Shown: positions 57,417 through 64,000 of the stretch, one piece after another
Layout: each line of letters begins with the position of its first letter
Position numbering within the stretch: position 1 is the first letter of the stretch
From: Candidatus Oxydemutatoraceae bacterium
GTDB taxonomy: Bacteria > Pseudomonadota > Gammaproteobacteria > Poriferisulfidales > Oxydemutatoraceae
Assembly (NCBI GenBank): GCA_965220085.1
Contig: CBDCOZ010000003.1
Span: 1,963,667-2,027,666, forward strand
Length of the DNA stretch: 64,000 nt
Direction: 5' to 3'
Notes under the pieces: model-generated
Told to the model about the DNA's origin: nothing
The model's database searches: none
The model's input: only the letters and a program-made list of their open reading frames with translations
Translations under genes and position numbers: made by a program

Positions 57417-58292
57417 CTACCGCAACGGGCCTTCCAGGAAAAGGCGCAAGCGCAGGCGCACCTCAGGCACCAGATTGGCCTCTGTCACCCGATGACCCGC
57501 GCTACACAGCGACCCTTCCAGCCCTTCCTGTGCGGGCGTGTCATGCTGATCCATGAAAGAAACGCAGGCGCGCACATACCTGCCCACTTGGGCGGCACGC
57601 GGTGCGAAGAAGTCGGAAGAAGCGGCGTCCGCTATGTCGCTATAGGCGCTGTCCGCGGGGGTGTCGGCGCCGCCGGGCGGTGCGTCGGCCTGTTGCCACT
57701 GCCAACTCAGGGTGTCGACATCAATGCCGTTGCGATCCGTCACACCGGCGATGGAAGCTGTGATTCCGGCCGCGGCGGTGATTGTGGGCGCGCCGGCGGC
57801 GGCCGTCTGCGTGGATGCGCTCACCAGATTGATGGTCATGGTGACGATGTCAGATACTTGCTTATCAGGGCCGGAAGTAAGGACACCCACACCGACAGTC
57901 AGACGGTAGGTGAAACTGTCATAACTATTGGTGACAGAGATGGCAGCGGTGGACGGAGTGTATACAATATGGCCCTGATCCAGTTGAATTACAGATGATA
58001 TATTATTAGGGCGAGCAGGAAAAGCGGAGACTACCCTATTTTTTAAAGTGCCGTGTTCGGTGTCGGATTCAATGTGAAGCCCCCCTAGCAAGTCGCCATC
58101 CGCATCCTCGAAAGGAAAATCAGCGACTCTGAACGTGTAACTGCTGCCAATAACGACAGCAACGCTGGCATCCCGAACCATGATGGGAGCCGCATAAGCG
58201 CACGTTACGCCCAATGCCCAGAAGGACAGCGCAAGGCATGTGGCGGTTATCCGGCGATTGCGAGGGGTAGTATCAAAAATTTGTCGTTTCAT
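57417..58292 (-). CDS. Secreted Ig/cadherin-like protein, family member B (subfamily 1). Ends in RLRLRLFLEGPLR.
   Basis: AGGAGAAATACT-ATG, signal peptide MKRQIFDTTPRNRRITATCLALSFWALGVTCAYA, and the conserved C-terminal ~150 aa. Confidence 0.75.
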   Translation of the reverse strand: MKRQIFDTTPRNRRITATCLALSFWALGVTCAYAAPIMVRDASVAVVIGSSYTFRVADFPFEDADGDLLGGLHIESDTEHGTLKNRVVSAFPARPNNISSVIQLDQGHIVYTPSTAAISVTNSYDSFTYRLTVGVGVLTSGPDKQVSDIVTMTINLVSASTQTAAAGAPTITAAAGITASIAGVTDRNGIDVDTLSWQWQQADAPPGGADTPADSAYSDIADAASSDFFAPRAAQVGRYVRACVSFMDQHDTPAQEGLEGSLCSAGHRVTEANLVPEVRLRLRLFLEGPLR

Positions 58293-58382
58293 AGTATTTC
58301 TCCTAATGGTTTGTATTTCGTAAATGCGGTTGCGCAATGAGCGCTTCCGCCCCAAAGACATCCGCAAGCAATTCAAGAAGCC

Positions 58383-58461
58383 ACAAACAACGAATCGAAG
58401 ATACACAAACAACGAATCGAAGATACACAAACAACGAATCGAAGATACACAAACAACGAAG
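58383..58461. repeat. 22-nt tandem repeat of about 3.6 copies (ACAAACAACGAATCGAAGATAC)
   Basis: Seen directly. Lies within a ~210-bp insertion into the otherwise conserved B/C boundary. Confidence 0.95.
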
Positions 58462-58468
58462 TTGTTTG

Positions 58469-58533
58469 TGCTCTCATCACTGTGCTCTCATCACTGTGCT
58501 CTCATCACTGTGCTCTCATCACTGTGCCTCATC
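58469..58533. repeat. 14-nt tandem repeat of about 4.6 copies (TGCTCTCATCACTG)
   Basis: Seen directly. Adjacent to the 22-mer array, upstream of gene B's leader. Confidence 0.95.
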
Positions 58534-61749: not shown

Positions 61750-61893
61750 AGTATTTCTCCTAATGGTTTGTATTTCGTAAATGCGGTTGCGCAATGAGCG
61801 CTTCCGCCCCAAAGACATCCGCAAGTATCTCCGTATCCTGTCTCATCCTCGCGCGCCTCATAACACTCTCCTTCTCCATCGCAGTTACTCGCA
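61750..61893 (-). promoter_or_regulatory. Conserved cassette boundary, E/D junction
   Basis: As above. Confidence 0.6.
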
Positions 61894-62735
61894 TTACCGC
61901 AGGGGGCCTTCAAGGAAAAGGCGCAAGCGCAGACGCACCTCAGGCACCAGATTGGCTTCTGTCACCAGTTCGCCATCGCTACACAGCGACCCGTCCAGCC
62001 CTTCCTGTGCGGGCGTGTCAAACTGATCCATGAAAGAAACGCAGGCGCGCACGTACTTGTCCAGTTGTTCGGTCTGCGGCGCGAAGAAGTCGGAAGAAGT
62101 GGCGCCCGCTATGTCGCCGTAGGCGCCCATGGGGGTGTCGGCCTGTTGCCACCGCCAGATTAGGGTGCTGATATCAATGCCGTTGATATCCGTCACACCG
62201 GCGATGGAAGCTGTGATTCCGGCATCGGCGGTGATTGTGGGCGCGCCGGCGGCGGCCGTCTGCGTGGATGCGCTCACCAGATCGATGGTCATGGTGACGG
62301 TGTCGCTGTAGTCGCTGTTCGGGCCGGAAATAATCAGGCCGTCCCCGACAGCCACTATGTAAGTGAAGCTGGCGTAGCCGCTGGTAACGGAGATGCCATC
62401 CGCAGGGGGGGCGTATGCCAATCTGAAAGCAAAGAAGGGTATTGCGTCCAGGGGAGCAACTGAGATGCCATCAGCCCGAGTCAGAGTGCCTGTGCTGGGC
62501 AACGATTGGACAATGACCGCGTTGAAAGCATCCCCATCATCATCTCTGTAAGGAAAATCACTGATTGTGAAATTGTAGTTGCCGCCAATTGGGACATCAA
62601 CGCTGCTGTCCTCCGCCATGGGAACTGCAGCTTGAGTCCGGGTTGCGCCCAATGCCACAGAAATGCCAGCAGGCAGAGGATGCCGGCGGTTATCCGGCGA
62701 TTGCGGGGGGCGGTATCAAAAATTTGTCGTTTCAT
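61894..62735 (-). pseudogene. Family member E (subfamily 1) with a −1 frameshift in the signal-peptide region (~62655). Possibly a pseudogene or a sequencing error.
   Basis: MKRQIFDTAPRNRRITAGILCLLAFLW is in one frame. ALGATRTQAAVPMAEDSS… and the body are in the −1 frame. One extra G restores the B-like …FLWALGAT… sequence. Confidence 0.6.
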
Positions 62736-62875
62736 AGTATTTCTCCTAATGGTTTGTATTTCGCGAATGCGGTTGCGCAATGAGCGCTTCTGCCACAAAG
62801 ACATCCGCAAGTATCTCCGTATCCTGTCTCATCCTCGCGTGCTTCATCACACTCTCCTCTCCGCAGTTACTCGCA
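62736..62875 (-). promoter_or_regulatory. Conserved cassette boundary, F/E junction
   Basis: As above. Confidence 0.6.
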
Positions 62876-64000
62876 TTACCGCAACGGGCCTTCAAGAAAG
62901 AGACGCAAGCGCAAGTTCAGATTCGAAGGCCCTTCCACCAGATCTATCGTCAGGGTGGCATCGCGGCTGGCCTCGGTGGCCGGGCCGTCGGCGCCGGTGT
63001 CGCGCACCCGGTAGGTAAAAGCGGCATAGCCGGCGCCGACGGGGGCGCCGTCATCCGGGTAGTATGCCAAGTCGTCCAGTTCGGTCAGGGTCAGGGCGGC
63101 GCCTGCGACTATGGCGGGGCCGGTACCGCCCGCCAGCACCAGGGTGCCGGCCGTGGGCAGGGAGGTTATGCGGATGCCGTTGATGGTGTCGCCATCCTCA
63201 TCGCTGATGGGAAAGTTTGAGCGTGAAAAGCGGTGCGGTCTGGCGGACCTGGCAGTGTTCGCCACCTTAACAATGGTGCTGCGGCCGACGGGCGCATCGC
63301 TGATATTGCTTACGCGGGTACCCTCGGTGCATACTGTCTCCTCGTGGCCCAGCAGGTCATCAAAGGTGAGGCAGACGCGGAGATACAGTCCCACGTGCTC
63401 TTGAGCCGGAGTGAGGAGGCGCGCGTTGGGGCCAGTGCCGCCGGTACCGGGGATGTTGGCATAGGGACCGCCCTGAGTGGCGGATTGTTGCCATGCGTAG
63501 GTGGGATCCTCAATCCGTCTCGGCCTTCCATTGGGGTCCATGATAGTGCCATAAGAATTGACCAGTATCCTGGTGTCCTCGTCAAACAGTTCTCCGGCGC
63601 CGGTAGCAAGAAGTTCCGGCATGCCGGTTGCGGGCATTTGCACGCCCTCCAGCAGATGGATAAACATATTGGCGCCACTGAAAGGGGATGACGCGCCGCC
63701 GGCCGCCACATTGAATTTGAACGAGGCGTAGCTATTCTTTGCGGCCGCGCCCGTCGGCGGATACCAAGTGAGGTCGCCTATGCTGGCGGCCGCCACAGTG
63801 TAGGGCACATTGTCATTGGCGCTGCCATCGTCTATGAGGGCGGCGCTGCCCACCCGCAGTGTGCCGAGGGCCGGCAAGGTTTCTACGATTACGCTGTCCA
63901 AGGTCAGGGTGCCGCCGTCCGCATCCACAAAAGTGAAGTCACTTGCCTTGAAGGCATGCGCATTGTCGGCGTCGGCATTGTTATGCACAAATACGAAGCT
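62876..64000 (-). CDS. Family member F (subfamily 2, D-like), truncated at the 5' end by the window edge. Ends in RLRLRLFLEGPLR.
   Basis: Open to the window end. The body aligns to D (…PHRFSRSNFPISDEDGDTINGIRITSLPTAGTLVLAGG…). Confidence 0.7.
   Translation of the reverse strand, partial: SFVFVHNNADADNAHAFKASDFTFVDADGGTLTLDSVIVETLPALGTLRVGSAALIDDGSANDNVPYTVAAASIGDLTWYPPTGAAAKNSYASFKFNVAAGGASSPFSGANMFIHLLEGVQMPATGMPELLATGAGELFDEDTRILVNSYGTIMDPNGRPRRIEDPTYAWQQSATQGGPYANIPGTGGTGPNARLLTPAQEHVGLYLRVCLTFDDLLGHEETVCTEGTRVSNISDAPVGRSTIVKVANTARSARPHRFSRSNFPISDEDGDTINGIRITSLPTAGTLVLAGGTGPAIVAGAALTLTELDDLAYYPDDGAPVGAGYAAFTYRVRDTGADGPATEASRDATLTIDLVEGPSNLNLRLRLFLEGPLR

Follow-up and report, generated by a model that had tools for sequence, protein, structure and literature searches.

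The 64-kb stretch of DNA analysed here (64,000 nucleotides (nt), referred to as the window) carries a family of paralogous genes for exported proteins that end in the same short peptide. Five of these genes, B–F, lie head to tail on the minus strand at the window end (57417–64000), and a solitary sixth copy, A, lies at 3656–5369. Mapping of the open reading frames (ORFs) bore out the five consecutive minus-strand paralogs and the outlying copy reported in a first-pass annotation of this DNA. The genes probably belong to a lineage-specific, contingency-type family of free-standing adhesin modules, in which the C-terminal tail is under selection as a peptide and the junctions between neighbouring genes are locally homogenised as DNA.

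The proteins are assembled from a few domains, of which X and Y are the most common. The order is X–Y–tail in F (57417..58292; 291 residues, identical to database protein P0001, with TAG as the stop) and in C (61894..62735), X–Y–X–tail in D (60454..61749; 431 residues) and in B (62876..64000; an ORF with its N-terminus truncated by the window end), Cys-rich–Y–tail in E (58648..60312; 554 residues) and X–Y–He_PIG x2–tail in A (3656..5369, with an ancestral start, ATGAAGCAACAAAATG, at 5369). All six are on the minus strand. The two divergent central subfamilies described earlier are therefore better seen as different domain orders. D consists of a signal peptide, X, Y and X beta-sandwich domains and the tail, and E of a signal peptide, a Cys-rich N-terminal region of ~400 residues, a Y domain and the tail. 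In C, a 1-nt insertion near 62657 causes a frameshift, leaving the start and signal peptide in one ORF (62481–62810) and the body in another (61894–62658); its database entry, P0002, is the 241-residue body alone. The nearest paralog of B is D, with proportions of synonymous (pS) and nonsynonymous (pN) differences of 0.22 and 0.19. The Y domain of E shows a pS of 0.2–0.3 relative to C and F, to which its N-terminal part cannot be aligned.

The tail is a 13-residue peptide, RLRLRLFLEGPLR, located at the C-terminal end. Members follow the pattern [LI]RLRLR[LIV]FLEGPLR, except that one ends in EGSLR, and the motif is never found internally. The domain that precedes it can be X, Y or He_PIG. Back-translation of the pattern gave seven matches in the window, including a remnant that lacks a gene, with zero expected from shuffled sequences. 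When the 13 tail codons were compared for all pairs, pN was 0 in most and at most 0.08, owing to a difference in the first tail residue, while pS ranged from 0.17 to 0.81. Synonymous divergence in the tail is thus as high as in the gene bodies and the core of the peptide is unchanged. An unchanged peptide combined with heavy synonymous change points to selection on the protein, making the tail a conserved peptide rather than conserved DNA. The first-pass annotation had taken the near-identical last ~13 codons for invariant DNA and had proposed cassette exchange between two fixed DNA boundaries. Neither proposal is supported by the divergence at synonymous sites, as the 3' boundary is conserved at the peptide level and not as DNA.

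The invariant 13-residue tail is the element that looks new. It is predicted to behave as an amphipathic, beta-strand-like peptide in which five alternating leucines lie opposite three arginines, followed by EGPLR. In AlphaFold2 models, the tail was a coil in D (predicted local distance difference test score, pLDDT, about 52–56), whereas in F it formed a strand of low confidence. Its most likely role, we infer, is that of a linear signal for sorting, anchoring or assembly that takes the place of an autotransporter barrel. A hidden Markov model (HMM) of the tail run against giant relatives of the family returned only non-significant, strand-like matches (such as HRLRLVLEGS in barrels, E > 2), and no homology to a barrel strand is claimed. 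No curated model for the tail was found in NCBIfam or Pfam, and the tail string had no match in the literature searched.

Short C-terminal sorting tags are known from several systems, including LPXTG/sortase, PEP-CTERM/exosortase, GlyGly-CTERM/rhombosortase and the C-terminal domain (CTD) of the type IX secretion system. Like these, the tail is short and invariant, forms the very end of many exported proteins encoded by one genome, is portable across domains and is restricted to a lineage. Unlike them, it has neither a transmembrane helix followed by a basic cluster nor a folded CTD, no cognate enzyme was identified, and it lacks an NCBIfam or Pfam model. A bolder version of the proposal, in which RLRLRLFLEGPLR is an undescribed sorting or assembly signal, the cadherin/Ig modules of an autotransporter have been cut loose as dozens of small Sec-exported proteins that are delivered to or assembled at the surface via a single amphipathic beta-strand, donated for example to a partner barrel or the following subunit, and the near-identical junctions let arrays grow, shrink and reshuffle, is put forward only tentatively and is judged rather doubtful as a whole.

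Tail-bearing members number 61, comprising 57 database proteins of 180–952 residues (32 paralogs in a first set and 25 further tail-bearing representatives) together with A, B, D and E of the window. The 2,046,636-bp contig that carries the window's ftsK also holds 28 of the 32 first paralogs and 9/9 of the further ones checked, so that at least 41 of the 61 members are located on one 2.05-Mb contig. A start of the MKRQIFDT type is present in 11 of the 57 database members, at the N-terminus in nine and within the first 50 residues in two. The tail pattern had no matches in 185,579 GTDB representative genomes or in JGI metagenomes, and a protein-alignment scan of the GTDB genomes also gave none. 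On the sequence evidence, the family is lineage-specific and greatly expanded, and its proteins are exported and modular. Signal peptides at the N-terminus were read from the sequences and from a helix in the model of D. Estimated from gene count and mean length, the family occupies ~3–4% of the 2 Mb genome, and a small genome would hold a large recombining repertoire of surface modules.

Searches of Pfam and NCBIfam with the six window proteins yielded He_PIG in A as the sole match, X and Y falling below the Pfam thresholds. An exhaustive search with a HMMER profile built from 19 members matched 4389 proteins, 504 of them at E < 1e-30. Proteins with Cadherin_4/5, Big_9 and SCAB-Ig/IG_AIR9 matches are among those reached by the profile, and giant proteins, the longest of 6679 residues, are built by repetition of the X–Y pair. 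Relatives P0138 and P0080 combine the Pfam Autotransporter domain (PF03797) with Cadherin_4, Big_9 or SCAB-Ig, and P0156 has strong SCAB-Ig, IG_AIR9 and Cadherin_5 matches. Among the top 118 tail-less matches, 32 end in an aromatic residue; those inspected end in an outer-membrane beta-signal. The giant relatives that were checked belong to other assemblies. By Pfam, the C-terminal autotransporter barrel (PF03797) is absent from the six window proteins, all of which end in EGPLR.

The AlphaFold2 model of D (pLDDT 84) comprises a signal-peptide helix at residues 22–37 and three beta-sandwich domains. Its best fold matches in Foldseek were the extracellular cadherin repeats of cadherin-23 and protocadherins and a bacterial ice-binding adhesin (E = 8e-7). 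The model of F (pLDDT 64.5) gave fold matches similar to those of D, and a sequence search of the PDB returned spurious Fab matches and nothing else. The HMM profile, the fold matches and the He_PIG domains of A are consistent with the 'Ig/cadherin-like' label of the first-pass annotation. As assigned from these profiles and folds, X is a bacterial cadherin-like domain and Y is an A9/SCAB-type Ig domain. The Cys-rich region of E (residues ~30-430) had no family match in Pfam or NCBIfam; it contains an internal repeat (59012–59091 versus 59678–59757) with the motif NG.TEC.C....IG..PNCV.

Relatives with tandem autotransporter genes made of X–Y modules were also seen at two loci, L001 and L002, of ENA assembly ERZ25072196 (GC content 64–65%). 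On these contigs of 4x–8x coverage, the passenger and the barrel appear as two ORFs, a split that probably reflects frameshift errors. Neither locus has a spacer similar to those of the array.

Consecutive genes of the array are joined by a junction block of ~210 nt, which spans the last ~12 codons, the stop, a spacer of 140–144 nt and the first 8 codons (MKRQIFDT). When the four internal junctions were aligned, mean pairwise identity was 86–100% over the block and 30–45%, equivalent to no real alignment, in the flanking gene sequence. On the minus strand, the B>C spacer (62736..62875; 140 nt) consists of a purine-rich trailer of ~56 nt and then a 76-nt leader ending in AGGAGAAATACT. The C>D (61750..61893; 144 nt) and D>E (60313..60453; 141 nt) spacers are of the same kind, with pairwise identities of 91–94% among the three and of 91–93% for B>C against the other two. 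The long E>F spacer (58293..58647) is the same unit as C>D, its two ends being 97% identical to it, but is split mid-way by a 211-nt insert between trailer and leader. The insert contains perfect repeats (14-nt x4.9 at 58467–58534 and 22-nt x3.6 at 58382–58460) and a 10-bp hairpin, CACAAACAAC..GTTGTTTGTG. A perfect 9–10-bp hairpin, (C)ACAAACAAC-NNN-GTTGTTTGT(G), is common to the E>F spacer (58536-58556) and the long spacer upstream of A (5430-5455). It is not followed by a T-run and could be an operator or a processing site.

The spacer is conserved as DNA, well above neighbouring synonymous sites. The C>D and E>F spacers have 4 differences in 143 nt, compared with differences at 15 of 85 identical-residue codons between C and E (Y plus tail; p = 2e-4). 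Likewise, the B>C and D>E spacers show 13 differences in 140 nt and B and D differ at 42 of 241 such codons (p = 0.03). The closest bodies have 17–18% synonymous differences per identical-residue codon, versus a spacer identity of 91–97%. The earlier statement that every copy is framed by the same DNA holds only for junctions internal to the array. It does not extend to the outer flanks, where identity to the array sequences falls to 57% for the leader of A, 70% for the trailer after A (3571..3655, minus strand, with no paralog downstream) and 56% for the diverged trailer after F, the last gene of the array (57307..57416, minus strand), which keeps a purine-rich GGAG motif. With the array leaders, A shares just a 14-nt leader core, GCAACCGCATTTAC, and the start region. 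Aligned boundaries were better conserved than bodies only in part: junction DNA exceeds the bodies in the array, but synonymous sites of the tail are as divergent as those of the bodies.

Searching the window with the spacer by blastn detected family junctions exclusively, and a boundary lying beside unrelated genes, which would have marked it as a generic element, was not seen. A repetitive extragenic palindromic (REP) or miniature inverted-repeat transposable element (MITE) type of intergenic repeat that supplies gene ends by chance could be suggested by a repeat that is short and spans a stop codon, in a genome that has other odd junction repeats. This origin is hardly credible, given that within the window the spacer is found beside family genes only, that the tail codons vary synonymously around a fixed peptide, and that searches of public genome and metagenome collections gave no match to the tail pattern.

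The near-identity of the junctions does not follow the relationships of the genes that they connect. The leaders of D and F are identical (76/76) and their first 8 codons are near-identical, although the D and F bodies are saturated and unalignable. For C and F, whose bodies are the most similar, 72/76 leader positions match, and for B and D, which form the closest pair overall, only 51/57 trailer positions do. Trees of leaders and of trailers both conflict with the body tree. This incongruence, together with the weakly conserved flanks of A (57–70%), is the reason for reading the spacer as locally homogenised. If every base were under strong constraint, A should be equally conserved, whereas local conversion or unequal exchange predicts the pattern observed. 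The near-identical intergenic DNA and first 8 codons of the array are most likely the product of local concerted evolution, by gene conversion or unequal exchange between adjacent junctions.

Functional constraint without recombination would explain the same block by a need for all of its parts, namely promoter or 5' untranslated region, ribosome-binding site, signal-peptide start and sorting tail. Selection on the tail peptide is clear, and the 14-nt leader core and start region are present even in the distant copy A, in agreement with such constraint. Nevertheless, regulatory regions rarely decay with uniform identity over 140 nt, and constraint accounts neither for identical D and F leaders next to saturated bodies, nor for the 57% identity of the A leader, nor for the conflict between leader and body trees. 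With conversion also seen independently within genes, constraint as the whole explanation is considered unlikely. Alongside local homogenisation, some regulatory constraint probably acts on the short leader core and the ribosome-binding site.

Gene conversion is detectable within the genes, independently of the spacers. Comparison of F with C at identical-residue codons gave synonymous differences at 18/43 in domain X and 7/93 in domain Y (Fisher p = 4.8e-6), with the best breakpoint at the X/Y border. Paralogs from other parts of the genome form pairs with 97–99% identity in Y and 45–46% in X. The family includes mosaic genes that arose from intragenomic recombination. In the F–C pair, the tail has 4/13 synonymous differences against 7/93 in the adjoining converted Y (p = 0.03); being more diverged synonymously than the converted domain, the tail does not look like a recombination anchor. 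Leader/body incongruence, heterogeneity between F and C and mosaic pairs together uphold the earlier suggestion of gene conversion rather than ordinary paralog decay. Diversity in the family would arise by module shuffling and by segmental conversion that homogenises Y while X diverges.

A different explanation places the function of the block in RNA. RNA encoding the tail would pair with the purine-rich trailer and mask the Shine-Dalgarno sequence and ATG of a 33-codon upstream ORF, the stop of which overlaps the next Shine-Dalgarno sequence. Gene N+1 would then become translatable once gene N is translated, or once its nascent peptide arrests at the invariant tail, in the manner of SecM–SecA. 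RNAalifold predicted a stem of ~17 bp between tail codons and trailer, with one compensatory pair and several one-sided changes, and a Shine-Dalgarno sequence (AAGGAG, 6 nt, ATG) with an open frame is present in 4/4 array spacers. The lack of a detected terminator or promoter in the short spacers is compatible with a polycistronic mRNA. However, the folds were less stable than those of shuffled sequences (z +0.5 to +1.2), and searching the array against Rfam, both at the gathering threshold and at E <= 1, identified tRNAs only. The structured cis-acting RNA offered as an alternative in the first-pass annotation is accordingly unsupported. Moreover, most of the substitutions in the upstream ORF change the amino acid, and the spacers resemble each other too closely to serve as independent evidence, the RNAalifold stem being derived from three near-identical sequences. 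The terminal genes A and F possess a tail and trailer with no paralog downstream, and the trailer of A lacks the ATG. A cis-acting device of this type appears improbable.

The region 5' of A (5370..5722, minus strand) contains an orphan tail remnant, its trailer, the ACAAACAAC hairpin and a diverged leader. The remnant, 30 nt at 5693–5722 on the minus strand, encodes ..RLFLEGPLR* without a gene and is followed by trailer-like DNA; remnant tail and trailer are 76% identical to the tail and trailer of A itself. A is therefore positioned between direct repeats, which, along with repeated junctions flanking divergent bodies, might be taken as a sign of programmed cassettes. Silent donors would be copied into an expression site, as for pilS/pilE, vls and msp2, or a site-specific recombinase would act on the junction repeats in an integron- or shufflon-like way. 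Yet every copy in the array has a Shine-Dalgarno sequence, an ATG and a signal peptide, and the silent promoterless cassettes that the first-pass annotation suggested looking for were not found in the window, where the 30-nt tail remnant alone is without a body. No hairpin-forming attC-like structure was found, and no integrase, recombinase or reverse transcriptase was found in the 64-kb window. The ORFs are paralogs rather than unrelated cassettes. A programmed system of either kind is very unlikely. Integron gene cassettes in particular were rejected, as the junction folds were no better than shuffles, the window has no integrase and the ORFs are paralogous. No reverse transcriptase of a diversity-generating retroelement was present among the window proteins scanned.

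Several features are typical of contingency loci. Directly after the first 8 codons of A there is a run of 18 C (5327..5344 on the minus strand; G on the plus strand); no other G/C homopolymer of 8 or more occurs in the 64 kb. The run separates the ancestral start of A (ATGAAGCAACAAAATG..., homologous to MKRQIFDT) from the signal peptide, and its current length puts this start and the body in different reading frames. Proteins P0031, P0064 and P0074 have proline runs where A has its C tract. The perfect 14- and 22-nt tandem repeats upstream of F are of a hypermutable type. The C tract, the perfect repeats 5' of F and the frameshift in C form the usual signature of on/off switching, which probably takes place at the poly-C tract and at the tandem repeats of the long spacer. 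Paralog number, 5' repeats and mosaic genes agree with the contingency-type surface-antigen family suggested initially.

Variable families of paralogous autotransporters or outer-membrane adhesins include Pmp of Chlamydia, with poly-G tracts, Hop/Bab of Helicobacter pylori and Opa of Neisseria. Like them, the present family packs numerous paralogs into a small genome, keeps the gene ends conserved around divergent middles, carries a homopolymer or repeat in the 5' coding region and shows conversion mosaics; its relatives are true autotransporters. In contrast to Pmp, Hop and Opa, the window proteins lack a beta-barrel or any other membrane domain, their conserved C-terminus is just 13 residues long, the genes form head-to-tail arrays with near-identical spacers, and variation and surface exposure are putative.

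The X–Y modules are homologous by profile to those of giant repeat adhesins (Cadherin_4/5, Big_9, SCAB-Ig/AIR9 A9), of which the Marinomonas ice-binding adhesin (PDB 5irb) is one, and their folds match. Giant adhesins, however, have 10–57 modules in one protein, whereas the family distributes one to a few modules per gene (180–952 residues) over dozens of genes and has the tail in place of a barrel or a type I secretion signal. Modules that are repeated within giant autotransporter adhesins of other organisms are separate genes here, each with a signal peptide and a tail. Concerted evolution of tandem arrays is familiar from rDNA spacers and from the vomp/badA arrays of Bartonella. As in rDNA and vomp arrays, the intergenic units are homogenised locally and independently of the flanking genes. 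The difference is that here the homogenised unit is the junction, and the gene bodies stay highly divergent.

Some observations weigh against a family of adhesin modules that are sorted by their tails and have their junctions homogenised locally. The other window genes (~35 were scanned) have housekeeping functions and include no identified partner for the tail, and no autotransporter barrel of the type found in the relatives was detected on the same contig among 8000 word-sharing candidates that were scored. A search of a 5.8-billion protein set with a tail-only profile produced no matches but also missed the known members, and is hence uninformative. Scanning the spacers for sigma-70 promoters and terminators revealed no sites. 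Furthermore, DNA-level comparisons are based on seven copies, all from one 64-kb window, and for four nearly identical spacers the effects of selection and conversion are not fully separable.

If the tail does serve as a sorting or assembly signal, it would represent a novel means by which Gram-negative bacteria present adhesin modules that have no barrel of their own, and could serve as a simple tag in the search for the machinery that recognises it. With no such role for the tail, the family would still be a well-documented, conventional variable multigene family. The array also separates two look-alikes in raw sequence, a conserved peptide and homogenised DNA.

Repeated junctions occur elsewhere in the window as well. 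Long-period tandem repeats of 93–99% identity, in 2 to 8.4 copies (mostly 4–7), were located at 8185-9131, 9666-10458, 25223-25790, 30666-31564, 32657-33010, 16448-16795 and 894-1407. Several of them amplify gene–gene junctions. One comprises seven 134-nt copies from the ftsK 3' end to ATGATG, holding the ftsK stop and the lolA start. It follows the same logic as the array, with DNA kept across the stop, the spacer and the next start.

A low-GC island at 36000-42000 (37–41% GC, compared with about 58% around it) adjoins a tRNA-Ser gene (41848–41940). It carries genes for an AlwI-family restriction enzyme, an N6/N4 DNA methylase, a fusion of RadC with a Dam methylase and a DUF5655 protein, and is probably a restriction–modification island gained by horizontal transfer. 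Three CCDC90-like coiled-coil paralogs were also noted, at 34-804 on the plus strand and at 54647-55702 and 56001-57101 on the minus strand, with internal repeats of 27–135 nt (ATKEDL-type heptads) and a transmembrane segment at the C-terminus. The two minus-strand genes follow the array directly on its downstream side, and the third is near A.

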